A program made the position numbers and the translations under genes. A stretch of DNA of 64,000 nucleotides from a virus, in IMG/VR virus record IMGVR_UViG_3300025005_000002, positions 1 through 64,000 of that record. The stretch is one strand, 5' to 3'. Below the pieces are notes generated by a model, which made no database searches, was not told where the DNA came from, and worked only from the letters and a program-made list of their open reading frames with translations. Below, piece after piece: positions 11,094 through 64,000 of this stretch (its first letter is position 1; the number at the start of each line of letters is the position of its first letter).

Positions 11094-13268
11094 ATGCCAG
11101 GTGTAGTGAATCCAAGATGTATGGTATACATTGATAATGCTGATTATACTTCGTATTTATCTACTATTTCAGTAAATCATGAAGTACAGACTTTGTCGCC
11201 CACATATACTATAATATTCAGTAAAAATTTACCCATTACTGGTGGCGAGGGATTTGGTATTTATATGGGATATGGTAGTACGCTTGTCCCAATGCTTACT
11301 GGTGGGACAATCTCAACATTTAGTAGAACTTTAACGCAGCATGGTGTAGAATTTGTTGTTAATGGTCGTGGGCCATTGTCTAAGTTGTTAGATGAGGCAC
11401 CAGAATTAGATCAGATTTACGTGCCTACGTGGGATAAAGCTGCGTTGAATGATAAGGGTGAATGGGTCAAAACGGCATGTGGGGTATCCAGAACACATCC
11501 AGTTCCATTAGGTATTGATCCAAAACAAGATGTTAGTGAATATGAGATTTTTAGTGCTGATTGGACCGTTCATTCTTTGTTACAAGATATTCTAAAAAAA
11601 TTAGGATTAACGGGAGTATTAAACATACCAGATTTTAAATATAGGGAAGTATTTAAAATACTAAGAACGCAGACATGGTATTCGGCAATTCAACAATTAG
11701 TTAGTGTGTGGGAACCATTAATATTTATGCGTAGTAATATTGTATATATATTAGACACAGATGTAGCATTACCAGAATCGTCTAATATCCAGTATGGTCC
11801 AGATAGTTGTATGGTAACTACAATAAATTATTCTAAGAATGACATAATTAATAGGATTATAATAAAGGGTGGAGTTGATGAGAGTGTAACAGAACCAGAA
11901 AAAAAAGATGTATGGATTCAACCAATTGATTATATGACAGAGATAATCCCAGACGATCTAGGTGTGTGGGCAAACGAGACTGCATCTAGTGAACATCCAA
12001 CCCCAGGGTCTGGTTCTGGTGGATTTACTGGTGATAGGATTAAACACGCATATTTTAAACCTATGTTTGGTGATCCAATATTAGCCTGGACAAAAAAGAT
12101 ACAATATTATAAAGGGAATGCAATTGGATATACAATAGAAAAGAATTATTATAGAGCACAAGGTAATTATGGGTCAGACCAGTCAGTATGTACAAATATA
12201 ATAAAAAAACGGACTCAATCGTGGATTGTCAATGGTTATTACAATAGTGATTTTACTAATACGTGGATATCTGGAAGTCTTTATATAGAAAAGGGATTTT
12301 CTGGTGGTACAATAACTGATGCAGCAGATCCTACAACAACTATTGGCGATGTGCCATCGACGTATATCTCTATTGGTACGGTGGCAACTTTAGAGGGTTC
12401 ATCATATGAAACAGATATTATGAGTGGAGACGTTATTGCTAATCCTACTTATGGTGGGTTTTCCCTTTGGAGGCCAGTAGAATGGATTAAGGTGCGTGAT
12501 ATAGAAGAAATGGCCGATACGGTAACTACTTCATCGTTTTCTTCTTCAGTAAGTAGAGAATTTGGGATATTACCCAAAAATAGTATAACCAGTTCTGCAA
12601 TTGTTGGATTATCTGGGTCTGATACTAGGGCTTATTATTTGATAGGCTCACCAGTTACTGCTTTTAAAGATTTGTTTAATATGCAAAAGCAGGGCATGAG
12701 GTTATCATATAGGATTATAGCTGAACGTGTTGCGCAGGTAGATACAAAATATGATATGGCTATTAAGCAAAATACACTGTATGATTACACTAAAATGACA
12801 AGTGATTATGATTATCCAGTAGTTACCACTGATACTGAGATTATCCCTACAAATCCAGTATTACAATCAAGTAACAAAAAGAAACCACTATATCAATTTG
12901 AAGAGTATTTTGAAGATGAGGACAGTATAGCAAAATATGGGTATAGACCAATAATAACATATTATGACCCATCAATTTTAAATCATAATGATGCACAAAG
13001 GCTAGCCAATAAGGTATTCGCCAAGAGTGGCAGGATAGAGGAAGAAATATCAATACAATCTACAATTGGTAACCCTTTATTATATACTGGTAAATCTATA
13101 ATATTAGAGTCGTCTACATATAAACAGATAAATTTTGTACTGCAGAATTATGAGAATACCACCATACTTGGTGGCGAGTTTATAATTAATGGGATTCGGC
13201 ATAATTTTACTGATGCTGATGGGTTTAAAACTGAACTTTCATTAAGGAAACTGTGGAAATTGTACTGA
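11094..13268 (+). CDS. Putative baseplate hub/tail-associated protein
   Basis: 724 aa after the Dit-like gene; C-terminal SIAKYG...NGIRHNFTDADGFKTELSL resembles gpD/gp27-like hubs. Confidence 0.55.
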   Translation: MPGVVNPRCMVYIDNADYTSYLSTISVNHEVQTLSPTYTIIFSKNLPITGGEGFGIYMGYGSTLVPMLTGGTISTFSRTLTQHGVEFVVNGRGPLSKLLDEAPELDQIYVPTWDKAALNDKGEWVKTACGVSRTHPVPLGIDPKQDVSEYEIFSADWTVHSLLQDILKKLGLTGVLNIPDFKYREVFKILRTQTWYSAIQQLVSVWEPLIFMRSNIVYILDTDVALPESSNIQYGPDSCMVTTINYSKNDIINRIIIKGGVDESVTEPEKKDVWIQPIDYMTEIIPDDLGVWANETASSEHPTPGSGSGGFTGDRIKHAYFKPMFGDPILAWTKKIQYYKGNAIGYTIEKNYYRAQGNYGSDQSVCTNIIKKRTQSWIVNGYYNSDFTNTWISGSLYIEKGFSGGTITDAADPTTTIGDVPSTYISIGTVATLEGSSYETDIMSGDVIANPTYGGFSLWRPVEWIKVRDIEEMADTVTTSSFSSSVSREFGILPKNSITSSAIVGLSGSDTRAYYLIGSPVTAFKDLFNMQKQGMRLSYRIIAERVAQVDTKYDMAIKQNTLYDYTKMTSDYDYPVVTTDTEIIPTNPVLQSSNKKKPLYQFEEYFEDEDSIAKYGYRPIITYYDPSILNHNDAQRLANKVFAKSGRIEEEISIQSTIGNPLLYTGKSIILESSTYKQINFVLQNYENTTILGGEFIINGIRHNFTDADGFKTELSLRKLWKLY

Positions 13269-47730: not shown

Positions 47731-48327
47731 TTATATATAGAGAGTCTGGTCGTGTACAAGGTCATAATATACTATATATTATAATACGGAGGGGGCCCAA
47801 TTTGGATATACACATATTTTTCACGGAAATAATATAGATTCATGGATAGTGATATAGATTCACGTCTCAGATTATTGTGCGAGGCCATTTTTGCTCTGCC
47901 GTGGTCCTTTGGTGGTAAAAGTAAGATGGACAAAGTTTGGAGTAGATTAGTATATGCTGGATATCTAATTAAGAATTACCAGGAAGTAGTGAAGGTCCAT
48001 ATTTAGTCATGATGTACTTGTGCACGTGTAATAATAATGAAGGTGGAAAGGGTATAAACAAATATATCACCAAATGGGAGGTATGGAGAGCCCTTAGGAA
48101 CGCAGAAATAGCAATGTTAAAATACAAAACAAAAGGAGATAACAAATGATTAAGATCATGATAATCATCTTCGTTTTAATATTTGCCCTATACATTTTAC
48201 GAAAAGTTGCCGAGTACAATTATAAACGGTGGGGTAGATTCGATGAATAAGAAATATCTAAAGTATGATCCGTTACACCAGCAAGGAAAGAGAGGAAGGG
48301 GAAAAAAGGAATGATGACGAAAGAAGC

Positions 48328-51300
48328 GCCGCCGCGCCAGCGGCGAGGGGAGGGAAGGATGAAGCCGATCAAGGCGTGGGCGATAGGAACATTTTCGGGC
48401 GGTAAACTGTTGGGCATCGTTAGATACCAACTCAAAATGAAGACGAGGGAACCGTGTCTATACCATACCAAGGCTGACGCGCTCCGTGATGTCGAAATTG
48501 CCCTGCCGGAGGATATAACCGCTCGCCCCGTCCGCGTGACGATCACGGTGGAGGAATAGGGGGGAGAGATGATGGAAAGATGCGGCAAATGCGGGATGGT
48601 AGAGGAAAGTTCAATCCACGACATCAACAGTCCAGATACAGAAATACGAAGGGTGGCGCATCACTTCGAGTTGGTAGCCCCATGCCCTCGATGCGCCATA
48701 AAGGACGCCGCCCTCGCCGCCGCCAACGCCGAGAAGGACTTCTGGAAGTCGCACGATAAAGATGCCGACATTGTACGCGATTCCTACAACAAGGCCATTG
48801 AGGAAAGCGATCTTATTCGCGCTGACCTCGCCATCGCCAAGGCCGAGCTGACACGGCTGCGGGAGGCGATTGGGTGGGCAGAGTCTCACGCCCAAATATA
48901 CGCCACTGTCGGCGGATATAGATACGTTGATTTCGCATCCGAACTACGTCGCCGCGCCGGCGGCGAGGGGGAGGGCGGAATGATGTGGTGGTGCTGTTCC
49001 GCAGACTATCCCGATCACGATGAGAATTGCAAAGGAGGTGAGGGAAGGATGACGAGTGATCTTACTTGTGAGGATTGCGGGAGGGAGTTGCAGTTTGGCG
49101 TGGATGGGGTTTGTCGGTGTGGGAAACAACTATGCTTTGACTGTCACGAAAAGAATCACAAACGTTGCTATGAGATACCGGTACCTGGTGTGAAGGTCCC
49201 GGTGGGGGAATAGGAGGGGACGTGGACACTATAAGTTGTCAGCATGGCAATCTCGCCCGGTCCTGCGAAATCTGTGCATTGATCGCCGAGCGGGACGCGC
49301 TGAGGGAGGAAAACACCCGGTTCCGAGAGAAGCTGGACCGGGAGAAGATGGCGAAGATATTATGCGGCGGCAGAATGCGATGGAACGGGCTGTTCGAACT
49401 CACCCGCGACGGGTACAGAAGCGATGCCGACGTCCTGATCGCCTATCTTACCGAGTAGGAGGGGAACATATGTTACACCCGAACACAGGAATTGATCTCG
49501 GCAGGGAGGCTGACGAGGTTCGCAAGGAGAACGCCTCCTTTCGCGCCGCCCTCGCCGCCGCCGACGCGGAGCTGACGCGGCTGCGGGAGAGTAACGCGAG
49601 TCTGCTTGAAGGACTAAAATGCGTTGCCGACTTCGCATCCATGCCGCCCCGCGTAAGCCATGGCGCAAGTAACGGGAAGGATGAAATAGACAAACTGATC
49701 GCGGACATCGCCCTCGATTTATTGAAGCGGGTTGAATATAGATTGAGCCGCGCCGACGGCGAGGGGAGGGAAGGATGAGCATTAATTGTGGATCGTGCGG
49801 AACGCCGTTGTACCACATTGACGAAGCCTGCCCGAATTGTTTGGCCGGGTCTCGGCTTGTCGATAGGCCACCAACACACCATATTCTCCCATGCCCCCAA
49901 TGCGCCCGCTTCCGAGAGAAGTTGGACAGGGAGAAGATGATTGAAACGGTGCTCGCGGGAACGAAAGGGGTATGGACATACGATACCCTTACCGATTTCC
50001 TTATTAAATATCTCACCGAGTAGGAGGAAACAATGTACCAAGTATGCACGTGCCCGCAGTCGAATCTTACGGACGGGGATCCACATTGTTCCGTTCATGG
50101 GCAACCGTCGGAGTATAAGACTTATTCGTATTGCGAATCCTGTGTCGCCCTCCGCGCCGACCTCGCCGCCGCCAACGCCGCCAAAGAGGAAGAACAGAAG
50201 CGAAAGGAGTATTACCAAAATATCGTCTATGCGGTATGCAACGTACTCGATAAAATAAACGGATCGGCAATATGTTGCGGTACGAAAGACACTCCAACAA
50301 ATGAAGTCCAGGAAGCGATGTGCAGTCTGCAATCGAGATTGGCGGAACACACTCGCTGGGTATTACTAAATGCTGTTGATAAGAACGCATTACAGGAAGC
50401 GGAGGCCCACGCCAAGCGCCTTGAGGAATATATGCTCAAGGGCGTCGCGTTCAGGGATGAACTGCAGGCCCGCGTGAAAGAGTTGGAGTGCCAGAAGAAA
50501 GCACTCCAGCAAGTGAACGGGGAAACGGAATACAGGTTGTGCATGATACGGGAGGCGATAAAACGGAATGTAATAGACGCGCCAGACTTGCAGGCGGGAA
50601 ATATGAACGAAGCATATTTGGCATCTCTTGAATTGCAGCGTAGGAAAGAAGCCCTTACTGAAGCATACACCTCTTCCCCCCCATGCCGACACGAAGAGGA
50701 AGCGAAGCGGCTGAGGGAGGAATCACAAAGTGGGTTGGCGATGACTTCCTGCCCAGTCTGTGAGAGTGATGGCGCAAACACAAATGAATACAGGATCAAC
50801 AAGGAAATACACCGGCTACGGGAGGCGGTGGAATGGGCGCTTGGCATGTTGGATGACAATTGCGATCGGAGGTATATCCAATCCGAACTCCGCCGCCGCG
50901 CAGGGGGTGTCGAATGATCGCCGCCTACCTGAAGGAGGGAAAATGATGACGAAAACCGAGTGGAAGGATTTCGAGCGGGTTGAGCATCTGGCTGATGCCG
51001 TGGATAACCATGGCGTCGGATTCGGGAACCCACCAATGGATGACCAGATGGCTAGAACTATCCTCGCCGCCTATCGGGAACTGAAGGAACGCCGGGAGGA
51101 CGAAGAGTGGCTGAAAAAGCATTACGCTGATCTTATCTATCGTAATGACGGTGCGGTCAGTCTCCATGCGGCAGGAATAATCGGCAGGGCTATAGGACCC
51201 ACCCTCCACGACGCTGTGGACGTCGCCCGGGGAGGAAAATGATGACGTTGCAGATGCTGTGGCTAACCGTTGTTGTCATAGTGGGGTTCGCATATGTGAT

Positions 51301-51639
51301 TTACTTATTGTGTAGGATATTTGATGCGATCAACGCCGCACGGGGGAAATAAAGATGCTGAAGGAAGAGAGAGTATTCCGCCTGCGACTCAAGAAATTGT
51401 GCGGTATTGCCAACTGCGACCCACGCCCCATTCTTCGAGAACTAACATGGGTCGTGAAAGCCGTCCGGGAGGACGATGCGAAAGTGGTTGAAGGATGCGG
51501 AAACGACGAATTATATGAAGCCATCTCTGATGCTGTCCGGAAGGGGAAGCCGGTGCAACAGTGTACGTATTGCGGCTTAATGAAAGAAAATATTACGTCC
51601 AATGGTGAATGCAGAACGTGCCGCGCTGCGCATATATAA
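48328..51639 (+). other. GC-rich island of short genes built from shuffled repeated modules
   Basis: Abrupt GC rise; repeated junction blocks; genes 48359-48559, 48569-49213, 49222-49458, 49470-49778, 49775-50023, 50033-50917, 50943-51242, 51355-51639. Confidence 0.75.
50033..50917 (+). CDS. Coiled-coil/Cys-rich mosaic hypothetical protein
   Basis: AGGAGG RBS; CxC, CxxC, LRADLAAANA and ELRRRAG modules. Confidence 0.6.
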   Translation: MYQVCTCPQSNLTDGDPHCSVHGQPSEYKTYSYCESCVALRADLAAANAAKEEEQKRKEYYQNIVYAVCNVLDKINGSAICCGTKDTPTNEVQEAMCSLQSRLAEHTRWVLLNAVDKNALQEAEAHAKRLEEYMLKGVAFRDELQARVKELECQKKALQQVNGETEYRLCMIREAIKRNVIDAPDLQAGNMNEAYLASLELQRRKEALTEAYTSSPPCRHEEEAKRLREESQSGLAMTSCPVCESDGANTNEYRINKEIHRLREAVEWALGMLDDNCDRRYIQSELRRRAGGVE

Positions 51640-51848
51640 CCGTCTTCCGCGTTAAAGGAGAATGGGGATGTCTGAAATAAAGATTAGTTGTAATCAACAA
51701 GTTACGGCATTCCTTTACCAAGCCATGATGTATTTGAATCGTCGGCGGCATATGTCCCTTGCTCTGACAACCAATTTTCGCATAAGGGTAAGGCTACACA
51801 ATTTGTGGCAAAGGGTACACGGGTTATCATAACATGAGAGGAGAAAAT

Positions 51849-52103
51849 ATGAAAATAAGAAAGGGTGATATATATGAGGATTGTGCGTTTCACCCGGTGA
51901 GGTGCGAGTATATAAATGGCGATGATATCGAAGGGGTGTCATTACTTGATGGGTCCCGACCGCGCAGATGCAGTATACGGCATTGTGGGGTACGCAAAAT
52001 GACCAAGGATGAAGCGGCAGGTACAATTGCGATTTATGGGCAAGGAGGGGAGCAGGGTTTGTGGGAATATAAAAAACAACAAAGGAGTAACAAAGTAAAA
52101 TGA
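51849..52103 (+). CDS. Cys/His-rich hypothetical protein
   Basis: GAGGAG RBS; YEDCAFHPVRC...CSIRHCG. Confidence 0.6.
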   Translation: MKIRKGDIYEDCAFHPVRCEYINGDDIEGVSLLDGSRPRRCSIRHCGVRKMTKDEAAGTIAIYGQGGEQGLWEYKKQQRSNKVK

Positions 52104-54513: not shown

Positions 54514-55440
54514 ATGCAGGAATTACCGGCAGAAAAGATTGCCCAGTTAAGAGAGCATTTTATTAAGATAAGCTGTCAACCAAGGCAAGAAATAATTAAT
54601 AAGATCGCTAGACAAATGTCAAATTTGGATATTGAAATTTTGGAGTGCCAGAAGGCATTAGTAGCCCGAATAAGAGAGCTGGAGGTTAAGAAATTTGAGT
54701 ATGACGCAATGCAGATCAAACCATCGGCAGAACTTAAGGGTGCGGAATTTGACAATTTGCTCCTTCATCCTGATATTGAAAATATTGAATTTGAGGGGTA
54801 TGGGATTATAGTAACCACAAAGCCAATCAAGATTGAGTATGGCGGGGAAATATATTTTATTGGTCGATTTAATATATATCTTGAAACAAATGGTGGTATT
54901 GGGTGGTTGTTAAGGTTTAAGAATTTAGATCAAAATATATTTGGTCATCCCCATCCGCATATGCAAACAAATGGGGTACCATGTCTGGGGAATATTAAGG
55001 AATGTATGCCCCATATGATAGGTGCCAATCAGTTTGCTGCGGCGATTAATGTTGCCATTCAATATTTAAAGTCATATTCAGATTCAGATCAATATGGGAA
55101 ACCTTATGTTATATTGGAAAACTGGCCCAAAATAAAACGAGAAAAGGAGAAAGTCGATGAAGTTAGCCGAGGCGTTGATCGAGCGGAAGGGATTACAGAA
55201 GAAGATCGAGCGATTATCGGAGCGGTTGGTGAACAATGCCAAGACTCAGGAGGGGGAAACGCCCTCCGAGAATCCCCTGGAGTTGATCAAAGAGATCAAC
55301 GGGACGAACGAGGAACTGACGCATCTGATCATAGAGATCAACAAGACGAACGCCCTGGTATACTTGAACCCAGCGCAAATGCCGGTGGTGACGCTGGCCG
55401 ATGCGTTGGCCAAGAGGGATGGGATCGCGAAGAAGCGTAA
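54514..55440 (+). CDS. Coiled coil + E2/UBC-like domain protein (paralog 1)
   Basis: HPHMQTNGVPCLG matches the E2 HPN-x7-C spacing; colinear with 63042-63911; 3' part overlaps the next gene. Confidence 0.65.
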   Translation: MQELPAEKIAQLREHFIKISCQPRQEIINKIARQMSNLDIEILECQKALVARIRELEVKKFEYDAMQIKPSAELKGAEFDNLLLHPDIENIEFEGYGIIVTTKPIKIEYGGEIYFIGRFNIYLETNGGIGWLLRFKNLDQNIFGHPHPHMQTNGVPCLGNIKECMPHMIGANQFAAAINVAIQYLKSYSDSDQYGKPYVILENWPKIKREKEKVDEVSRGVDRAEGITEEDRAIIGAVGEQCQDSGGGNALRESPGVDQRDQRDERGTDASDHRDQQDERPGILEPSANAGGDAGRCVGQEGWDREEA

Positions 55441-55630
55441 TATACTGGCGAAGTTCGCGGAAGCAGCGACAGAACCAGTGAGGGCGTATGGACGGTTGGA
55501 AGTGAAATATATCCGTACGATGAATATACCGGCGATTCAGAAAGAGATCGATGCTCTCGCCGCCGAGTATAATGCGTTAGATGCGAAGATCCAGGGAAAG
55601 AATTGGGAGATTGACCTGGTAGTGGACTGA
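55157..55630 (+). CDS. DIP1984-family (DUF6847-like) coiled-coil protein
   Basis: MKLAEALIER..LQKKI..L..RL..NAK.QEGE.P.E.P...I...NW signature; AAGGAG RBS. Confidence 0.8.
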   Translation: MKLAEALIERKGLQKKIERLSERLVNNAKTQEGETPSENPLELIKEINGTNEELTHLIIEINKTNALVYLNPAQMPVVTLADALAKRDGIAKKRNILAKFAEAATEPVRAYGRLEVKYIRTMNIPAIQKEIDALAAEYNALDAKIQGKNWEIDLVVD

Positions 55631-55632
55631 TA

Positions 55633-55824
55633 ATGGAAAAGTTGTTACCGTGCCCATTTTGTGGAGGGAAAGGGTTGATGGGTGAATTTCCAGTGTCCGG
55701 GCGTGACGAAAAACAATATTCCATTCGCTGTCGTTCGTGTGCTTGTGAGGGTGGATGGGGTAAAAGTAAGACTGGGGCCATAAAGTGGTGGAATATGCGC
55801 ACTCCATTGAAAGGAGATGAGTAA
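55633..55824 (+). CDS. Lar-family restriction alleviation protein
   Basis: LLPCPFCGG...CRSC...AIKWWNMR. Confidence 0.75.
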   Translation: MEKLLPCPFCGGKGLMGEFPVSGRDEKQYSIRCRSCACEGGWGKSKTGAIKWWNMRTPLKGDE

Positions 55825-56057
55825 TGACATTTCCATGCAAAGAATGCGGGCTATTAAAGAGTCGATCGACAGCAAAGTGGCCTGAATTGGAGATTGCGTT
55901 CAAGAATGAAGTTCATGACCGGGCAAGAGAGATCGACCCTGAGCAGGAACGAGACTGGTTTAATATAACAATGGGGTGGTGCATAGCAAAGGGCGAACCA
56001 CCTGCAGGTGCGTATGCTTTTGCGTGCCACATTCGGTATCACACGGATTTAGGATAA
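55824..56057 (+). CDS. Hypothetical protein
   Basis: GGAG RBS; coupled ORF. Confidence 0.6.
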   Translation: MTFPCKECGLLKSRSTAKWPELEIAFKNEVHDRAREIDPEQERDWFNITMGWCIAKGEPPAGAYAFACHIRYHTDLG

Positions 56058-56063
56058 TACAAA

Positions 56064-56138
56064 TATGAGAGGACAGCGACAGGTGCGGTTGTCGTGCGTG
56101 GATCGAACCGCAAATTCTTGCCACGCAGTCCTCTCATA
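56064..56138 (+). ncRNA. Predicted three-way-junction RNA with loop-loop pseudoknot
   Basis: 11-bp P1 56064-56074/56128-56138; P2 56076-56095; P3 56096-56126; loops tgcggt/accgca complementary; strand assumed. Confidence 0.5.
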
Positions 56139-56141
56139 GAG

Positions 56142-56382
56142 TAGCACCAAGAAGGTAGCCTTAATGTTACACACAACGGGAATGTACCCAACACTCTGGT
56201 GGGCAAAGGGAGGCCCTGACGGAACCGAAATCCGTTTACTGTTTCTCCCAGTACGATCTCACATCTTTACAGCTTAAAGGGTCACTGTCACTTTCCCAAC
56301 GTGTATAATATTCAAGGTGAGGGCGGGTATGGGGGACTCTTGCTTCGATGAGGAACAAAGAAACAAGGGTCGCTTGGTGCTA
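56142..56382 (+). ncRNA. Structured element copy 1 (unknown family)
   Basis: Closing stem tagcaccaag/cttggtgcta; long stem 56159-56174/56301-56317; blocks shared with copy 2. Confidence 0.6.
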
Positions 56383-56396
56383 TAAAAGGGGTTGAT

Positions 56397-56945
56397 ATGA
56401 AAATTTGTTCTCATTGTAAAATTGAAAAACCTAGGAGTGAATTTCATAAACACAAAGCAAATAAAGATGGGTTAAACTATTGGTGTAAACCCTGCAATCG
56501 CACAGCAATTGGACAGTACCGGGCCACACCAAAGGGGGAAGAAGTAAAGAGAAAAATCAAGAAGAAGTACCGGACTACACCAAAGGGGAAAGAAGAAAAG
56601 AAAAAATCAGACAAGAAATACTGGGTTACACCAAATGGGAAATTATCTAAAAGAAAAGGAAAACTAAAACAAAAGTATAATATTACTCTTAAGGATTACG
56701 ATAAGATGTTAGAGACTCAAGGTGGGGTTTGCGCCATTTGTGGTACTGATAAACCAGGAGTTGGGTTTAATCATTTTCTTGTAGATCACGACCATAAAAC
56801 TGGTAAAGTTAGAGGTTTGCTTTGCAATATATGTAATATAATATTAGAGTATCCAAATGGACCTATTATGGATGGCATTCGATCCGCTTCTGTTGATTTA
56901 ACTGAGAGATATCTAAATATTATTAAGTATTTAAATAACAGATAA
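56397..56945 (+). CDS. HNH endonuclease, endonuclease VII type
   Basis: N-terminal CxxC...CxxC; KYNITLKDYDKMLETQGGVCAICG...VDHDHKTGKVRGLLCNICN. Confidence 0.85.
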   Translation: MKICSHCKIEKPRSEFHKHKANKDGLNYWCKPCNRTAIGQYRATPKGEEVKRKIKKKYRTTPKGKEEKKKSDKKYWVTPNGKLSKRKGKLKQKYNITLKDYDKMLETQGGVCAICGTDKPGVGFNHFLVDHDHKTGKVRGLLCNICNIILEYPNGPIMDGIRSASVDLTERYLNIIKYLNNR

Positions 56946-57146
56946 CGCCAAGCAGGTAGCCTTAATGTTGTATGTGATAAGGGATAAAAACTTGACAGGG
57001 GAAAAGGGGAGCCCATGCGGGCCTTAAATCCGCTTACTATAATTCCCTATACGATCTCACATGTCACAGTTTAACCCTAGGGTATGTCATTGTTATCTTC
57101 CCAACGCATATAATATTCAAGGTGAGGGTGGGGCAGGGGGCTGGCG
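56946..57146 (+). ncRNA. Structured element copy 2 (unknown family)
   Basis: Long stem 56960-56976/57105-57122 with compensatory changes relative to copy 1; shared tacgatctcacat and tataatattcaaggtgaggg. Confidence 0.6.
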
Positions 57147-57175
57147 CTGCAAAATAAATAAGGAGGGGAAAAATA

Positions 57176-57466
57176 ATGCAACCCAGTGATTGGACTTTTG
57201 ATGTAAGGGATATGGGGCAATTTGCATATATTATTTTCGCCCATAAGATTGACAAAGCAAAAGTGTTTGGGGCAGAAGGACTCAAGATGGTAAGAGACCT
57301 ACTTGGTCCAGTATCAGAATTGGTCGAAAATGTTATTTCAATACAGATGATTGAAAAGGTGGTTCCAATTCTTGAGTTTCATGGATTTCAACAAGGTGGA
57401 AATGCTACTAAGTTGATGTATTATTTTGAAGGTGAAGGATATTTTTTACCACCAGGTGAAGAATGA
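57176..57466 (+). CDS. Hypothetical protein
   Basis: AAGGAGG RBS; 96 aa. Confidence 0.6.
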   Translation: MQPSDWTFDVRDMGQFAYIIFAHKIDKAKVFGAEGLKMVRDLLGPVSELVENVISIQMIEKVVPILEFHGFQQGGNATKLMYYFEGEGYFLPPGEE

Positions 57467-57693
57467 GATACCCAACGCTGATAGAGGTAGAACTTGCTAA
57501 CCATGAACAGATTTGCGAGTGGTGGAGGTTTCTGGAGTCACCAGGAATGAGTGCAATTGATCTGGGTAGAGAAGAATTTAAGATTGTTGGTGAAAAAGAA
57601 TTAGCGATAATGACCAGGATTGGGGAAAGATTAAAGGAATTTGGTGGGTTTACTCCTAAAATATCAAAAAGTATTGGATGGATAAAAAGATAA
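57463..57693 (+). CDS. Hypothetical protein
   Basis: ATGA-coupled; ends GGFTPKISKSIGW. Confidence 0.65.
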   Translation: MRYPTLIEVELANHEQICEWWRFLESPGMSAIDLGREEFKIVGEKELAIMTRIGERLKEFGGFTPKISKSIGWIKR

Positions 57694-57719
57694 ATATTTC
57701 CGTTTAAAAAGAGGAAATA

Positions 57720-57917
57720 ATGTGCACTAAACGTTTACAAGCTATAGAGGTTAGGAATCAATTATCAAATTTTTTAACATATCTTACATATTATCACAGC
57801 ACAGGGTCTTTTCTACTTGCAAAAAGAGCTATGGATTTGTGGGGGTTTCTCTTTAGGGATGTAGTATTGGGTGGTAGATATAAAATCTACATAAGGATAC
57901 AAAATCTTGAGAGATAG
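57720..57917 (+). CDS. Helical mini-protein
   Basis: Same pattern as arrays 1 and 2. Confidence 0.45.
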   Translation: MCTKRLQAIEVRNQLSNFLTYLTYYHSTGSFLLAKRAMDLWGFLFRDVVLGGRYKIYIRIQNLER

Positions 57918-58087
57918 ATATATGTCCTGGGTTACCCTCTGTTTATTAAGTCTTTACCAAGCAGAGGACAAATTATTACAGATAAGAGAGATAACCCATA
58001 TAAGGATTAAGATTGCCAAATTACGGACAGCGATGTGGGATTTGAAACAGGGGTAAAATAATCATAGACCCAGCGGGTTAGGGAGGG

Positions 58088-58444
58088 ATGATGAGAGAGG
58101 AATTAAAAGGTAAGGGTGTAGAATTGACGCTAAAACACCCAAAGGTGGATGGTGGAGTTCAGACATATCGCACTGAAGATGGTTGGGAGATGATAGTAAT
58201 GCTTGGCAAGAAAGAGGGTGAGAGTTATCAAATGCATCGAATGATGATGACTGGGCCAGCTTTGGTTGAAGAATTAATAACTAGCTTCATAAAAGAATGT
58301 CCAGAAATGGCAATGCCGATAGTTGGCAAAGCATTGTTGGGGCAGTTGAAAGAACATGTGGGTCAGGTATTGGCTGGCGACGAGCCCAATGACAAATCAT
58401 CTATGAGTAATAATGAACCTCCCCCAGGAACGAAATTTAATTAA
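58088..58444 (+). CDS. Hypothetical protein
   Basis: GGGAGG RBS; ends PPPGTKFN. Confidence 0.6.
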   Translation: MMREELKGKGVELTLKHPKVDGGVQTYRTEDGWEMIVMLGKKEGESYQMHRMMMTGPALVEELITSFIKECPEMAMPIVGKALLGQLKEHVGQVLAGDEPNDKSSMSNNEPPPGTKFN

Positions 58445-58532
58445 GGAGGATACAATGACGCATACCACTTTTGGTGATGTAGTCGGGGCATTTTCGATTG
58501 TAGTACTTGCGTGGTTGTTGTTTCATTGTTAA

Positions 58533-58727
58533 ATGAAAGATTTTGTGGGTATTAATGACAAATTTATGTTTAAAGTGCAAACACAGTTATATACTAAAAA
58601 TAAAGTACAAGCCAATGCAAGGGGTGATATTTTAGACAAAATTGGTTGGGTATTACAGCCAGATAACCAACCATATATATCACGAAGATTATTTAAAAAA
58701 ATAGCCACGTTGTATTTCTCTTTATGA
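58533..58727 (+). CDS. Helical mini-protein
   Basis: 64-aa AT-rich ORF. Confidence 0.4.
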   Translation: MKDFVGINDKFMFKVQTQLYTKNKVQANARGDILDKIGWVLQPDNQPYISRRLFKKIATLYFSL

Positions 58728-58930
58728 TCAAATCTAAAATGATGTATGATATTCAAGAATTACTTGGTTGTGTAATACGGAACTATAAGATGTATCATCA
58801 ACGTAATACCGGTATATATCTATATAATGAATATAGTAAATTATGGAGTAGACTGGCACATTTAAGAATGTTTATGTTTGGAAAATATAAAGATTATGAA
58901 GAAGAGGAAATTAATGACAAAAACAAATAA
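58724..58930 (+). CDS. Helical mini-protein
   Basis: ATGA-coupled 68-aa ORF. Confidence 0.45.
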   Translation: MIKSKMMYDIQELLGCVIRNYKMYHQRNTGIYLYNEYSKLWSRLAHLRMFMFGKYKDYEEEEINDKNK

Positions 58931-59348
58931 GGAACTAGGATATCATCAGTGTCCTGGTGTGCCAGAATTAATGCACAAGTGTTGTGCAAGATTAAGGTCT
59001 CGTATACACTGTGAACGATGTGAGAAAATAATTAAAGATGGGAAGGTGACAGTTGTTAGGCGTAGGAGATGCCCTGGGGTACCGGCTGTGGGTCATTCGT
59101 GTAACACTATGACCATCAAACCGCGTTGTCGTATATGTGATGGGATATATAATAAGCATCAGACATATCTAAAAAAGATTAGCAAAGAAAAGATCGAAAG
59201 GGTTTGTTTAAAATGTGATAGAAAATTTATTGCCAAAAATCGTTTCCTTCGTTTATGTGATGGTTGCCGTAGTGTTAATCGTTCATCTGAACATAGGGGG
59301 ATGGATGAAACTAGGTATTCCATAAGTTTTGGAGGGAGGGGAGGATGA
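58914..59348 (+). CDS. Cys-rich zinc-finger protein
   Basis: Duplicated CPGVP repeats and several CxxC pairs; GAGG RBS. Confidence 0.6.
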   Translation: MTKTNKELGYHQCPGVPELMHKCCARLRSRIHCERCEKIIKDGKVTVVRRRRCPGVPAVGHSCNTMTIKPRCRICDGIYNKHQTYLKKISKEKIERVCLKCDRKFIAKNRFLRLCDGCRSVNRSSEHRGMDETRYSISFGGRGG

Positions 59349-59349
59349 T

Positions 59350-59568
59350 ATGGCTAGTCCAGATGACATTAAGCGCGAAATAAAATATAATTATGAAGTA
59401 ATGAAGGAGCGGGTAAGGCTCAGGCAAATTAATGAATCTTGTATTTATCGAATTATTGAGGCACAGGCAAGAGCCGGGGCTAGTCTTTCAGGAATCCATG
59501 ATTATTGGGATGAGTATATGCCAGACGAATTATGGATAAAATATCATAGTGAAGGAGGTAGGTACTAG
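59350..59568 (+). CDS. Hypothetical protein
   Basis: GGAGG RBS. Confidence 0.5.
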   Translation: MASPDDIKREIKYNYEVMKERVRLRQINESCIYRIIEAQARAGASLSGIHDYWDEYMPDELWIKYHSEGGRY

Positions 59569-59734
59569 TGGAAAAAGAAGCACACATTAAGCGTCATAAA
59601 GAATTACACAAGGCTTTTGATGAATTACTTGCGGATTTTATTTTGCATATAGAAAAATTTTCTTTAGAAATATCTATCATGGAGTTGATGCAGTGGTCGC
59701 ATCAACAAACCATAAATCCTACGATAAAGGAGGA

Positions 59735-60124
59735 ATGATGTCATTCGAAGGTAGAGAGATAAAGATTTGTGATAATGGGCATTTAATAATCATTGAATGT
59801 AATTTATTTGCTGGTCCAGAACAGTGTTATTGTGGGGCCGAGATAAAATGGACTCGCATAATAGATGATACGAATTGTGAGGCGTATGGTTACTTCCCAA
59901 TTGAGTTCTTCAAGGTAAAGACACCGGTTGTCGAAGAAGTTTGCCCAACATGCAAACATGTGAAATTGATAGAGAATATGGGGTATGAAATCCCCACTTG
60001 TGTAAATTGTGGATCTCAAGAAATAAGAAGTGGTTTACATCAACCAGCTTATGGTGGGACGCCATTTGTTGGAGAGATCAAATGCGAAGCATGCGGGACC
60101 GTATTATTTAGCAGCCAACCCTAA
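59735..60124 (+). CDS. Multi-zinc-ribbon protein
   Basis: AGGAGG RBS; CDNGH, CYCG, CPTC, CVNC, CEAC. Confidence 0.65.
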   Translation: MMSFEGREIKICDNGHLIIIECNLFAGPEQCYCGAEIKWTRIIDDTNCEAYGYFPIEFFKVKTPVVEEVCPTCKHVKLIENMGYEIPTCVNCGSQEIRSGLHQPAYGGTPFVGEIKCEACGTVLFSSQP

Positions 60125-60155
60125 ATGCCCGTGCGGCAGAAAGTGAGGCTTACGG

Positions 60156-60368
60156 ATGGAAGAATGGCCGTCTAATGGGGCCAGGCCCAAAAGAATGGCA
60201 CAACGCAAATGTCTTAAATGTGATGTAGAATTTCAAGCAAAAGATAGGTTCCATCGTTTATGTGATCCATGCAAGTGTATAAACGCTGGTATTGCTGATG
60301 TTGAGATTGAACTCCCTGAGGAGTTGCTAAAAAAATTACGCTTTCATCACTACTATAGGAGGAAGTAA
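60156..60368 (+). CDS. Zinc-finger protein
   Basis: CLKCDVEF...RLCDPC, similar to the C-terminus of 58914-59348. Confidence 0.6.
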   Translation: MEEWPSNGARPKRMAQRKCLKCDVEFQAKDRFHRLCDPCKCINAGIADVEIELPEELLKKLRFHHYYRRK

Positions 60369-60763
60369 TGGGGAAAGAATATAAAGATGAGAAGATGGAT
60401 AAGGGAAAGGGGACAGACCTGGTAATATCTGTTCGCAATAAACTTACCAATGAAACGATTACGATGGACGCCGGAGAAGCTAACGAGCAATTTATTCTTA
60501 CTATGGTAAAAGCAAATGCGGATCGTGTGTTTATGGCAAAATCTTGTAGTTCGAAACTCTTGGTTGATCATCTCTTAAATGTTGTACAGGATAACAAGGA
60601 AGAGTTTATGATAGCCCTTGTTATTGCTACCACAACTGGAATGATTAATTTAAAAGAGATGAGTAAAAATATTAAGGTTCTTTCTATACCAATTGGTGAA
60701 GATGGCACTCCTAATTTCCCGAGCTTTGGCAACGATGACAAAAAGAAACCAACCTTTAACTAG
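60368..60763 (+). CDS. Hypothetical protein
   Basis: AGGAGG RBS; ends KKPTFN. Confidence 0.6.
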   Translation: MGKEYKDEKMDKGKGTDLVISVRNKLTNETITMDAGEANEQFILTMVKANADRVFMAKSCSSKLLVDHLLNVVQDNKEEFMIALVIATTTGMINLKEMSKNIKVLSIPIGEDGTPNFPSFGNDDKKKPTFN

Positions 60764-60782
60764 AAAGGGGAGGAAGCGTAGG

Positions 60783-62462
60783 ATGGATGATAATGCAAAA
60801 CTGATGGAGGCCTTGGAGGTTATGAAGAAAAACCTCATTGAGGCCAAAAAAGTTATTATGGCACAAGAAGAGGTTTTGGATCAATTTCGTACCCCCCCCT
60901 TTCTTCAAGGTATCGTTATTGGTGGCGTTACTGGGCAGATAGAGTGGTCTAAGTTTGTTAAGGGTTTAAAGGTAAAACTTCGTAGGGATTCCAGTTTTGC
61001 CCATCAGAGTACAGTCCCCGGAGTAATACAAAAGATTGATGAGAGTGGTTGGGCTCAAGTCTTGTGGGATAACGGTAGTTCTAATTCGTATCGTACCGGT
61101 AAACCTGGGACTGACGAAGGTGTATGTGACCTTGAATTTGCTGAAAATTCACTTGGTGAAGAAATTTGTGTGCTTGAGGGTTCGTCGGTGCATTATGCCC
61201 AAAAGCCATATATTAGGGTAGAATTAGGCGATACGGTAACTCTAAATCCGATGACGAAGCAGGTAATTGGTGTCGTGGCTCCGGTGATATCTGGGGAGAT
61301 CCGATATGTTAATAAGGTGATATCAGATGAATTGGTGGAAGTCTCTCACCAGGATGCATCCAAAGTAGTACTCACTGGGAAATTTGCCAAAAAGATGGAA
61401 AAAGGGGACCGTGTTATTGTCGATAATACTGCAACAATTGTCCTGAACAACCTGGGAAAGGACGAGACAAAGTTTGAGGTTAAAACTTCATCAATGTCAA
61501 TCAACTGGGATGATATTGGTGGGTTGGAAGATGCAAAGAGAGAGATGGTCGAAATTGTGGAACTTCCTCATAAGTATAGCAATTTATATAAGTTTTATAA
61601 CAAGAAACCGGCAAAAGGGATCTTGTTGTGGGGCCCTCCTGGTTGTGGTAAGACCATGCTTGGAAAAGCAGCAGCTACTGCAATGGCTGCTATTCATAAG
61701 CAGAATGGCAATGGAAGCGGATTTCACTATATCAAGGGACCCGAGATCCTGGACAAATATGTGGGTGTGGCAGAGGCCACAATTCGCAGGATCTTCGAAA
61801 ATGCCAAAAAACACAAGGCTAAGAACGGGTTCCCTGCTGTAGTATTTATTGACGAAGCCGACGCCATCCTAGCTAGGCGTGGTTCTGGTATCAGTTCGGA
61901 CATAAATAATACCATCGTCCCGATGTTTTTGGCGGAGATGGATGGTATGGAAGAGTCTGGTGCACTGGTATTGCTTGCGACCAATAGGGCCGATGTACTT
62001 GATCCCGCAGTAACACGTGATGGGCGAATTGACAGGAAGATAAAAGTCACAAGGCCTACAGTGAAGTCTGCTGCTGAGATTTTTATGATCGCCTTAAAGG
62101 GCGTTCCCACCAATAAGGATATACCTAAGGTGGTACTCTCACAGAAGGCTTCTGAATCATTGTTTTCCGATACCAGAATATTATATGAGATTCGTACTAA
62201 AAGGGGTGGCATGATTCCGTTCACACTTAAGCAATTGGTGAATGGGGGGATGGTGGTCGGTATTGTGGATCAAGCGATTTCAATCGCTATCCACAAAGAC
62301 ATTAAGAGGTCAGCAAAGACTGGGGTATGTGAAGAGGATATAATGATGGCGATTGACAAGATTGAGGCACAGAACTGTGGGCTCAATCATAACACTGAAT
62401 TGGAAGAAGTTGTTGCTGGTTTTCGTGAAGATGTTACAAATATTATTCCTATAAGGAGGTAA
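60783..62462 (+). CDS. arc: ARC/Mpa-type proteasome-associated AAA+ ATPase with inserted MIB/HERC2-like domain
   Basis: Coiled coil + PP hinge, OB region, Walker A GPPGCGKT, pore loop KGPEILDKYVG, Walker B FIDEAD, RGSGISSD, TNRADVLDPAVTRDGRIDRKIKVTRP and ARC-like NGGMVVGIVD. Confidence 0.85.
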   Translation: MDDNAKLMEALEVMKKNLIEAKKVIMAQEEVLDQFRTPPFLQGIVIGGVTGQIEWSKFVKGLKVKLRRDSSFAHQSTVPGVIQKIDESGWAQVLWDNGSSNSYRTGKPGTDEGVCDLEFAENSLGEEICVLEGSSVHYAQKPYIRVELGDTVTLNPMTKQVIGVVAPVISGEIRYVNKVISDELVEVSHQDASKVVLTGKFAKKMEKGDRVIVDNTATIVLNNLGKDETKFEVKTSSMSINWDDIGGLEDAKREMVEIVELPHKYSNLYKFYNKKPAKGILLWGPPGCGKTMLGKAAATAMAAIHKQNGNGSGFHYIKGPEILDKYVGVAEATIRRIFENAKKHKAKNGFPAVVFIDEADAILARRGSGISSDINNTIVPMFLAEMDGMEESGALVLLATNRADVLDPAVTRDGRIDRKIKVTRPTVKSAAEIFMIALKGVPTNKDIPKVVLSQKASESLFSDTRILYEIRTKRGGMIPFTLKQLVNGGMVVGIVDQAISIAIHKDIKRSAKTGVCEEDIMMAIDKIEAQNCGLNHNTELEEVVAGFREDVTNIIPIRR

Positions 62463-62465
62463 GTT

Positions 62466-62693
62466 GTGAGTGCACAGGAGCAGATTAAGAAGAGGTCGCA
62501 TAAAGGCGGTGGGGGGGGCGGTTCTAATGATTTTGACGGTCTTGGGCTTGAAATGGCCGTTATCCCCGGCGTTGATGAAGTGTTACGCAATTTAGATAGT
62601 GATATTAAGAATGTTGGTGGGTTGATTAATAGGACACAGGAAAGGATTAATCAGAGACAGGACCGGCGTCCTTCGCATAATTGTGAATGTTAA
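62466..62693 (+). CDS. Pup-like small protein with non-canonical CEC C-terminus
   Basis: GTG start with AGGAGGT RBS; SAQEQIKKRSHKGGGGGG...DEVLRNLDSDI resembles Pup AQEQTKRGGGGG...DDLLDEIDDVL; directly after arc. Confidence 0.55.
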   Translation: MSAQEQIKKRSHKGGGGGGSNDFDGLGLEMAVIPGVDEVLRNLDSDIKNVGGLINRTQERINQRQDRRPSHNCEC

Positions 62694-63045
62694 TTTTGGA
62701 GGTGGCACAATGTTTAATGGGCTGCTTGTTTGTTTAATACTGGCTGGTGCGGTGGCATCAATTTCTTGCTCCATTAGTAAGGCTGGGGTTATGAGACCCA
62801 TCAGGCAATGGGTCCGTAAAAAGAATGCATGGCTTGGTAAACTTGTGTCCTGTGTATATTGTACTAGCCACTGGATATCAGCGATATTAGTTATAATTTA
62901 TAGGCCAATCCCGTTGCGTTTAGTACAACCAATTGATTCAATAGTTGCCATATTTTTGATAGTGACTATGGCAGCTGGGATGATTTATTGGATTGATTGG
63001 TCTATTGGTTTTCAACCAGATCCACCACAAGAGGGTAATCAATGA
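62683..63045 (+). CDS. DUF1360-like membrane protein
   Basis: TM helices with LVSCVYCTSHW motif. Confidence 0.65.
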   Translation: MNVNFGGGTMFNGLLVCLILAGAVASISCSISKAGVMRPIRQWVRKKNAWLGKLVSCVYCTSHWISAILVIIYRPIPLRLVQPIDSIVAIFLIVTMAAGMIYWIDWSIGFQPDPPQEGNQ

Positions 63046-63911
63046 GGGTACATCCAGATTCGGTGGTTGCTTTAAAAGAGGCCTATTTCAAGAATAAACC
63101 CGAATTATCTAGGTTTGTGGCTGGTCGTTTAAAGGTCAACAAACAAACCGTTGTTGGTGTACATGCCAAGCATTTTAAGGAGGTATGTAAGGTACTAAAA
63201 TTACCAATAAGTAAGTTAAAAAGTAGTCGTACTGTATATCGTGGAGTGTATATGGCTACAGTAGACGAATCATTTAAGTCAAAACTGAAAGATAAAAGAC
63301 AAGAAATGCGGCAAAAATATATTGAAATAGCTAGTGGTTTAAGGTCAAAAAAAGCAGTGGAACACCTAAAACATGCGATACATGATCAAGAAGCACGCAT
63401 CCACGCGATTCAAATAGATTTGGTAAATAACCTAAAAAATCTTGAGGGGAAAAATAGAGAATATAAAGTAATTTGTGAAGGTGATCAGGGTACCACAGAA
63501 AACAAAGGTGTTGAATTTGATAAGTTAATGGCTAATCCTGATATAGTAAGGATATTTATAGATGATAATTATTTTACTGTATGGACTAGACCTATTTATA
63601 TTAAGTATAATAATAAGATATATGATGTTGGTGAATTTAAAATAGTATTAGCAATTAACCCTACGGAATTTATAGTAAAAATGCGTAATTTGACCAGAAA
63701 GATTAAAGGTTATGCTCATCCACACATACGTAATAATGGGCGGCCATGTCTTGGTAATATCCAAGAATGTTTACCTCAAATGATTGCAGCACGGCAATTT
63801 GCAGCCGCTATTTTTGTATGTATTCAATATTTAAAATCAGTTAATGATAGTGGATATTATGTAAATATTCACAATTGGCCTTTAAAAATGGCAAAGAGAA
63901 GAGGGAAATAG
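63042..63911 (+). CDS. Coiled coil + E2/UBC-like domain protein (paralog 2)
   Basis: HPHIRNNGRPCLG; colinear with 54514-55440. Confidence 0.7.
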   Translation: MRVHPDSVVALKEAYFKNKPELSRFVAGRLKVNKQTVVGVHAKHFKEVCKVLKLPISKLKSSRTVYRGVYMATVDESFKSKLKDKRQEMRQKYIEIASGLRSKKAVEHLKHAIHDQEARIHAIQIDLVNNLKNLEGKNREYKVICEGDQGTTENKGVEFDKLMANPDIVRIFIDDNYFTVWTRPIYIKYNNKIYDVGEFKIVLAINPTEFIVKMRNLTRKIKGYAHPHIRNNGRPCLGNIQECLPQMIAARQFAAAIFVCIQYLKSVNDSGYYVNIHNWPLKMAKRRGK

Positions 63912-64000
63912 GAAAGAGATATCAAGGTAAGATTGGGGTATATTAATGGATACAATTCTAATGCGTCGAAAATATATAGATCTAGTTAGTGGTAATAGAT

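Follow-up and report, generated by a model that had tools for sequence, protein, structure and literature searches.

A phage operon that joins an Mpa/ARC-like unfoldase cassette to a predicted ubiquitin-like conjugation cascade

In the ubiquitin, SAMP and Pup systems a protein tag is usually paired with an unfoldase. Bacterial systems that conjugate ubiquitin-like proteins (Ubls), namely Bil, Bub and Cap2/Cap3 of the cyclic oligonucleotide-based antiphage signalling system (CBASS), have to our knowledge so far been described as host defences. Here we analyse an operon of IMG/VR virus record IMGVR_UViG_3300025005_000002 in which genes for an Mpa/ARC-like AAA+ ATPase, a Cys-tailed microprotein and a DUF1360 membrane protein are followed by genes of a predicted Ubl conjugation cascade. 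The 64,000-nucleotide stretch that was analysed (hereafter, the window) corresponds to bases 1–64000 of this single 178,008-bp contig, and window coordinates are also genome coordinates. The genome is 92% complete by CheckV, nearly all of its genes lie on the + strand, and it belongs to a large, lytic-looking phage that probably infects ultra-small bacteria of the candidate phyla radiation (CPR). The closest described conjugation systems are BilABCD and other bacterial E1-E2-JAB-Ubl operons (PMC1779556; PMC10557695; bioRxiv 10.1101/2023.09.04.556158). Published Bil Ubls have a conserved Gly followed by a short overhang that is cut off by the JAB peptidase (PMC10557695; bioRxiv 10.1101/2023.09.04.556158), and the Bil E1 is a multidomain protein that combines inactive and active adenylation domains with a CYS insertion (PMC10557695). 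A survey of jumbo phages (PMC7824862) makes no mention of a phage Ubl cascade or of an ARC ATPase. A literature search of incomplete coverage returned no paper on the E2 family described below, on Cys-tailed peptides, or on a phage operon joining both. What is new here is the junction of the ARC/peptide/DUF1360 cassette with a complete Ubl cascade.

We are fairly confident that the operon consists of a Ubl conjugation cassette and an unfoldase cassette, and that its E2-like proteins serve a beta-grasp Ubl rather than the Pup-like peptide encoded next to the ATPase. The operon (60783–66185) is co-directional and tightly packed, and an additional E2 paralog lies upstream at 54514. From the ATPase gene to the Ubl gene, neighbouring genes are separated by gaps of 3–35 nt (3 nt and 35 nt) or overlap by 4–70 nt (4, 14 and 70 nt). 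Scans for promoters and terminators revealed nothing above shuffled expectation, so the limits of the operon are set by gene spacing only. The genes are as follows.

54514–55440, + strand: E2-like A, 308 aa; coiled coil, UBC-like core with HPH-x7-C, acidic/Gly-rich disordered tail
60693–62462, + strand: open reading frame (ORF) of the Mpa/ARC-like AAA+ ATPase, open from TTG 60693; probable ATG at 60783, 559 aa
62466–62693, + strand: Pup-resembling microprotein, 75 aa; begins 3 nt past the ATPase stop
62683–63045, + strand: DUF1360 membrane protein (Pfam PF07098), 120 aa from GTG; probable ATG at 62710
63042–63911, + strand: E2-like B, 289 aa; N-terminal domain of about 80 aa, coiled coil, UBC-like core
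63946–64578, + strand (the window holds 63946–64000): E2-like C, 210 aa; third paralog
64565–65308, + strand, beyond the window: JAB/JAMM peptidase candidate, 247 aa; JAMM motif
65239–65940, + strand, beyond the window: minimal ThiF-type E1, 233 aa; Pfam ThiF
65955–66185, + strand, beyond the window: beta-grasp Ubl, 76 aa; C-terminus KIRGN

Genome positions 63835–67377 are also referred to as locus L001, in which the Ubl gene occupies positions 2121–2351. The five genes that a first-pass annotation of the window had named within 9.4 kb (the ATPase, the microprotein, DUF1360 and E2-like A and B) are all present where it placed them, on the + strand. Its view that the operon runs past 64000 proved correct, with E2-like C, the JAB candidate, E1 and Ubl following. 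It had reported E1 and JAB as absent, which is true of the window, but both are encoded beyond it and the window ends 0.6 kb too early to include them. Its proposal to look past 64000 for an amide ligase, E1, JAB or a proteasome-type peptidase thus yielded the JAB candidate and the ThiF-type E1, but neither PafA nor a 20S subunit, which the genome does not contain.

The phage Ubl cassette carries the same four functions as BilABCD and related bacterial operons. Its Ubl likewise has a conserved Gly with a short overhang, and one viral contig, L011, even has the order Ubl-E2-JAB-E1. In contrast to the Bil proteins, the phage E2 and Ubl have no PADLOC match (PADLOC 2.0.0 may lack some Bil models), the E1 has only one ThiF domain and is 233 aa long, and the E2 combines a eukaryote-like HPH-x7-C motif with a long N-terminal coiled coil. 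Further differences are the gene order (E2-E2-JAB-E1-Ubl), the presence of three E2 paralogs, the Asn that follows the Gly, and the location on a lytic-looking large phage where the cassette is joined to an unfoldase cassette. By analogy, the Ubl cassette would work like Bil-type operons without being a member of them by sequence. The ATPase cassette resembles the Pup-proteasome system of Actinobacteria in having a TIGR03689-type ATPase (coiled coil, OB, AAA) with a small, probably disordered, Pup-like neighbour. It differs in that the phage genome lacks PafA, Dop and the 20S proteasome, the ATPase scores below the equivalog cut-off and has no GQYL tail, the peptide has a Cys-x-Cys end where Pup has GG(Q/E), and DUF1360 is a constant third partner. 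The comparison suggests that this cassette may act as the recognition half of Pup-Mpa, without ligase or proteasome. Compared with ubiquitin or SAMP and Cdc48/p97 or PAN, the phage by gene content has a tag and an E1/E2/JAMM set beside a classical-clade AAA+ unfoldase, and its E2 active-site motif has the spacing of eukaryotic UBC enzymes. However, no ubiquitin-binding adaptor, RING/HECT E3 or protease was recognised in the phage, where any coupling of tag and unfoldase is hypothetical, and the unfoldase is of the bacterial ARC type with a Pup-like partner of its own.

Each of the two cassettes is found without the other. The trio of ATPase, Cys-tailed peptide and DUF1360 was observed at 21 other ARC loci, none of which has an E2, E1, JAB or Ubl gene within 8 kb; co-occurrence of arc, Cys-tailed peptide and E2 genes, which the first-pass annotation had proposed to survey, is therefore not seen at these loci. 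The order E2-JAB-E1-Ubl, in turn, recurs in at least 12 other loci fetched via the E2 family, including one in a Candidatus Saccharibacteria metagenome-assembled genome (MAG). The E2 family almost always stands in this arrangement, and none of these loci outside the window's own clade contains an ARC cassette. It follows that two independent modules have been fused in the operon. Apart from the window, the modules are joined in contigs L004, L005 and L007 only, with ATPases that are 75–76% identical. L004 and L005 retain the junction AAA-peptide-DUF1360-E2-E2-JAB, and L007 also has upstream E2 paralogs ahead of the ATPase. The fusion is so far confined to one phage clade.

The fusion could support a proteasome-free tag-and-unfold path, in which Ubl would be placed on proteins of the host or of rival phages and the tagged proteins would be passed to a membrane-tethered Mpa-like unfoldase, with the microprotein as a non-covalent adaptor anchored to DUF1360. 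Taken as a whole we regard this path as unlikely; the hand-off of Ubl-tagged proteins to the unfoldase, taken on its own, is possible though doubtful. A quite plausible alternative, to which we give slightly less than even credence, is that the cassettes are merely neighbours which act on unrelated targets, the fusion reflecting only common expression timing. This would agree with the fact that each cassette is complete and common alone, as the above counts of loci demonstrate, and that the fusion occurs only in close relatives, with ATPases 75–85% identical. On the other hand, the stop codon of DUF1360 and the start codon of E2-like B overlap by 4 nt, the arrangement has been kept in L004 and L005, a different AAA ATPase accompanies the same E2 family on a 1.17-Mb metagenome contig (L002), and the ubiquitin, SAMP and Pup systems as a rule combine a tag with an unfoldase.

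At L002:7384–20861, JAB-E1-Ubl genes are followed by about nine tandem E2-like paralogs, some with changed active-site loops (PCFG, PCWG) and one without the Cys. The AAA ATPase encoded among and after this E2 array is not of the ARC type, with 30% identity over the AAA core only. For this reason it was rejected as a member of the same cassette and is considered an independent association. As a second, independent pairing of the E2 family with an AAA protein, L002 is a further hint of a link between tag and unfoldase. On the 105-kb viral contig L011 (8829–16369) two sets of genes were observed. The first, in Bil order, encodes a Ubl (68 aa, ending in KGN), an E2 (475 aa), a JAMM protein (373 aa) and ThiF; the second encodes JAMM, ThiF, a 236-aa protein and a Ubl (71 aa, ending in GGSF). 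A nicotinate/quinolinate phosphoribosyltransferase-like gene lies between both sets, and RtcB is encoded nearby.

We next consider the components of the Ubl cassette, which in our preferred interpretation work with one another rather than with the microprotein. E2-like A and B are 39% identical (E 6e-42), and B and C are 57% identical. Invariant in 34 sequences of the family are HPH (H142-P143-H144 in C) and, seven residues on, PCLGN with C152. The active-site Cys is retained in all three phage paralogs, and A also keeps HPH and PCLGN. The eukaryotic UBC active site is HPN-x7-Cys, a spacing equal to that of HPH-x7-C. An AlphaFold2 model of E2-like C (predicted local distance difference test score, pLDDT, 85.7) contains a long N-terminal helix followed by a helix, a beta-meander, a loop and two helices. 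A Foldseek search of PDB with this model revealed UBC E2s or the E2-like UFC1 in 49 of the top 50 matches, with probabilities of up to 0.99 and E of about 0.01; the sole non-E2 match, at rank 42, is the Csm1-Mam1 complex. With VIA-align, a Z score of 6.6 was obtained (116 residues aligned, root-mean-square deviation 4.1), and 225 chains had Z of at least 5. These results point to a UBC fold, with scores that are middling and a call that leans partly on the consistency of the matches. By fold, motif and gene context, phage paralogs A, B and C appear to belong to a single E2-like family.

This family is small, with 33 clusters among 5.8 billion proteins. A tblastn search with E2-like B of 50,697 deposited phage genomes gave no match; a scan of IMG/VR with a single protein found no relative, and only an alignment-based scan found one, L011. 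In a phylogenetic tree, E2-like B and C fall in one clade (support 99/99), E2-like A falls in a separate clade with orthologs from related phages (97/91), and cellular CPR E2-like proteins form a third clade (97/91). By this tree, the three E2 paralogs are old. A Saccharibacteria MAG encodes one E2 only, and its domain layout is that of E2-like B. The tail of E2-like A (about 55150–55440) is G+C-rich at the DNA level; it is an acidic, Gly-rich disordered extension common to P0023 and P0024.

The E1 contains a single ThiF domain at residues 33–213 (Pfam PF00899, 1.6e-23, 83.6 bits compared to a gathering score of 28.1). Its closest PDB sequences are ThiF (1.7e-6) and MccB (5.8e-6), and the only PADLOC models to match it are those of CBASS E1-E2 proteins, over the Rossmann part. 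The phage E1 is 62–71% identical to E1s of cellular and other loci, compared to only about 40% for the E2. The JAB/JAMM peptidase is a putative one, assigned by a conserved metal-site motif, E...HxHx7SxxD, which all five homologs examined keep as HVHPGSWVGPSAQD and an upstream EE(I/V)xWLG. The protein has no match in Pfam or among PDB sequences. As a lead, Prok-JAB is present in 10% of the members of a neighbouring Atlas cluster.

No family was found for the Ubl in Pfam, PHROGs, NCBIfam or PADLOC. Its model (pLDDT 83.1) has a beta-grasp fold, and Foldseek matched it to MoaD, ThiS, SAMP1, NEDD8 and ubiquitin (E down to 1e-4, probability 1.00, template-modelling score 0.57–0.70). The Gly-Asn end is conserved in 11 loci, with KIRGN in seven and KIKGNG, KIRGND, KIRGNTN and QVKGN in others. 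The conserved Gly is followed by Asn and 0–2 further residues or, in L010, by a second Ubl domain. The residue next to the Gly was observed to be nearly always Asn (L001, L003, L008, L002, L036–L047 and L011). The L010 Ubl (positions ~12040–12700) consists of two beta-grasp-like units in tandem, with KIQGN|QF at the joint, similar to a polyubiquitin precursor.

An E1 of this kind and a beta-grasp protein could in principle form a sulfur-carrier or peptide-adenylation pair (ThiF/ThiS-, MoeB/MoaD- or MccB-like) with no role in tagging, which we consider highly improbable. The minimal single-domain E1 with ThiF and MccB as closest PDB sequences, and the presence of MoaD and ThiS among the best structural matches of the Ubl, are compatible with such a pair. 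So is the conserved C-terminal Asn, which recalls the MccB substrate, likewise ending in Asn, the minimal E1 itself resembling MccB. However, the flanking genes of the pair invariably encode an E2-fold protein with a conserved Cys and a JAMM peptidase, genes for a sulfurtransferase or for cofactor synthesis were not found nearby, and expansion of the E2s (three here, about nine in L002) fits target diversification.

The ATPase matches Pfam AAA (2.3e-32), and its best NCBIfam family is TIGR03689 (pup_AAA; 2.5e-89, 300 bits), followed by CDC48 (187 bits) and PAN (176 bits). Though below the equivalog cut-off of 505 bits, TIGR03689 is still the top family by more than 110 bits, in agreement with the Mpa/ARC-like assignment that the first-pass annotation had made. 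The profile is covered from position 83 to 492 of 512 by the window ATPase and from 20 to 492 by those of relatives L004 and L007. PDB entry 5kwa (Mpa) matches residues 177–553, from the OB region through the AAA domain, with an E-value of 2e-57. The start codon is probably ATG 60783, because the resulting 559 aa match the length of relatives. The layout consists of a coiled coil, a small beta-barrel insert, the OB region and one AAA domain. The insert, between coiled coil and OB region at residues about 55–125, has faint matches to MIB_HERC2 (2.6e-4) and DUF4314; it is conserved across the CPR ATPase family and is therefore a family trait and no phage addition. This family is large, and the window ATPase is 45–50% identical to proteins labelled by their sources as CPR (Kerfeldbacteria, Staskawiczbacteria). 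The C-terminus, IIPIRR, has no HbYX/GQYL proteasome-docking tail. A search of the whole 178-kb genome for PafA/Dop (PF03136), the 20S proteasome and ClpP found none of them, so the absence of PafA/Dop and 20S that had been reported for the window extends to the whole genome.

The microprotein is composed of a basic N-terminus, a Gly run, an acidic stretch, a VDEVL-type helix and a C-terminal Cys-Glu-Cys. In an alignment of 13 sequences the two C-terminal Cys are the only invariant columns. Relatives hold the same post-ATPase position in related contigs, CPR loci and diverse viral loci; the family is always found 3′ of ARC-like ATPases and usually 5′ of DUF1360. In more distant viral loci the small post-ATPase ORF ends in other Cys clusters, at times followed by 1–6 residues. 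The Cys cluster is thus not always last, which argues against a C-terminal ligation tag. An exhaustive search with the family profile returned nine proteins at E≤0.001. Six of these are short (71–78 aa), and all five whose sequences were read end in C-x-C; the other three (679, 835 and 2,857 aa) are long and repetitive, and their matches are spread over several short segments. No family was found for the microprotein in Pfam, PHROGs, NCBIfam or PADLOC. An internal Gly-Gly (NVGGLINRT) was considered as a JAB cleavage site that would expose a di-Gly terminus, and rejected, being conserved only in the closest relatives.

The likeness to Pup consists of an N-terminal QEQ-K-R-polyGly-acidic pattern and a (V/I)D(E/D)VL helix segment similar to IDDVL of Pup, a sequence that the L012 and L013 peptides have exactly. 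With the Pup models (PF05639/TIGR03687) the window peptide had no match at E≤1, and nine family members had none at E≤10. The hhalign comparison with M. tuberculosis Pup (an approximate query) yielded probabilities of 20–24% over 12–19 N-terminal columns of low complexity. Homology to Pup by profile comparison was rejected as too weak, only this low-complexity stretch being aligned. The family C-terminus, C-x-C or a Cys cluster, contains no ligatable GG-Gln/Glu. Co-folding of two copies of ATPase residues 1–250 with the microprotein gave an ipSAE of 0.44, weak support according to the tool, while three controls all scored 0.00; the pLDDT of the partner was 55 and runs agreed in at least 66% of contacts. 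Of 80 solved complexes, 58 reach the mark used, as do 2 of 110 mismatched pairs; those that pass with 0.60 or less are just 7 of the 80 solved complexes and the two mismatched pairs. A solved Pup-Mpa complex exists, and the result could simply echo this known structure.

The DUF1360 protein matches Pfam PF07098 (1.8e-7, 31.5 bits, cut-off 21 bits), and its homologs adjoin the ATPase in 14 of the 21 other ARC-like loci. No functional study was found in a literature search for DUF1360. A conserved C-x-Y-C-x-S-H-W motif is located at the start of the second hydrophobic segment, right after a positively charged loop. The motif would face the cytoplasm, where the Cys tail of the microprotein could meet it.

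The first-pass annotation had combined the Pup-like peptide with the Cys chemistry of the E2-like proteins. That the peptide is itself the tag, joined to targets through its C-terminal Cys by thioester or disulfide chemistry of the E2s and then drawn in by the ARC ATPase, is scarcely credible: its gene does lie right after that of the ATPase, with E2 genes later in the same operon, and its N-terminus and helix segment do recall Pup, but the E2 family has conserved partners in the canonical Ubl, ThiF-type E1 and JAB present here and in at least 12 other loci, Cys-tailed peptides occur in many loci without any E2, several relatives carry 1–6 residues past the Cys cluster, unlike a ligatable terminus, and Pup models and hhalign gave the results above. 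As to the individual calls, a Pup-like peptide right after the ATPase holds for position and resemblance but failed with Pup hidden Markov models (HMMs). The two E2-like paralogs stand by UBC fold, HPH-x7-C motif and gene context; comparison by predicted structure bears out the E2-like call, and HMM comparison supports neither it nor the Pup-like one.

In the arrangement that we favour, with two cassettes and E2s acting on Ubl, the JAB peptidase would trim the 76-aa Ubl after the conserved Gly, taking off the terminal Asn. The minimal ThiF-type E1 would adenylate the exposed Gly, and Ubl would then move onto the Cys of an E2 (HPH-x7-C). The three E2 paralogs, which differ in N-terminal coiled coil, domain and tail, are probably combined E2/E3s that place Ubl on lysines of different target proteins. 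In the unfoldase cassette, the microprotein helix probably docks on the N-terminal coiled coil of the proteasome-free Mpa/ARC-like unfoldase, and the Cys-x-Cys end probably joins the Cys-x-x-Cys-His site of DUF1360 via a shared metal or a disulfide. Such a link would put the unfoldase at the membrane.

Several points weigh against this scheme. The E2-like proteins have no match in Pfam (including UQ_con and Prok-E2_A–E), PHROG, NCBIfam or PADLOC, and a profile of the family compared with PDB sequences gave coiled-coil noise only and no E2, so the E2 call is based on predicted fold (E ~0.01, Z 6.6), motif and context. The JAB candidate has weak PADLOC JAB matches (0.016 and 0.026). Simple trimming to Gly leaves the conserved Asn past it unexplained. 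The probable metal or disulfide link between microprotein and DUF1360 is drawn from matching conserved Cys motifs only. The adjacency of the cassettes is seen in one narrow phage clade and could stem from a single chance fusion without functional meaning. Finally, we infer the chemical steps, the microprotein contacts and the hand-off all from gene content, folds, motifs and co-occurrence.

A complete cascade with three E2 paralogs in a phage suggests that tagging is carried out by phages of ultra-small bacteria themselves, possibly to take over the host, to counter its defences or to exclude rival phages. The HPN-type spacing of the E2, the minimal E1 and the sharing of the cassette with Saccharibacteria bear on the age of complete bacterial E1-E2 cascades. 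With eight genes and no proteasome, the operon may offer a compact experimental system for recognition of tags by an unfoldase outside the ubiquitin and Pup pathways, and it could also reveal the role of Cys-tailed Pup-like peptides. The tag-and-unfold path, if true, would give ubiquitin-Cdc48 coupling its first counterpart in a bacterial virus and would be an instance of ligase-free Pup-type recognition.

Several features of the surrounding region were also observed. A patch at 48001–52000 has a G+C content of 0.50–0.53, compared to about 0.36 for the genome. Between E2-like A and the ATPase operon there is an endonuclease VII/HNH gene (56397–56945; Pfam 1.6e-22). The stretch 58878–60368 encodes several zinc-ribbon proteins rich in Cys (156, 143 and 70 aa); two of them have a common segment, CLKCD-x-x-F-x-AK-x-RF-x-RLCD-x-C, and L004 keeps one counterpart upstream of its ATPase. 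A 131-aa ORF (60368–60763) ends 20 nt ahead of the ATPase start, and its counterpart in L004 is 157 aa long. In L012 and L013 (CPR and prophage loci) a conserved 98-aa protein that overlaps the ATPase start takes the place of the 131-aa ORF. The phage clade and the CPR loci thus have different genes ahead of the ATPase.

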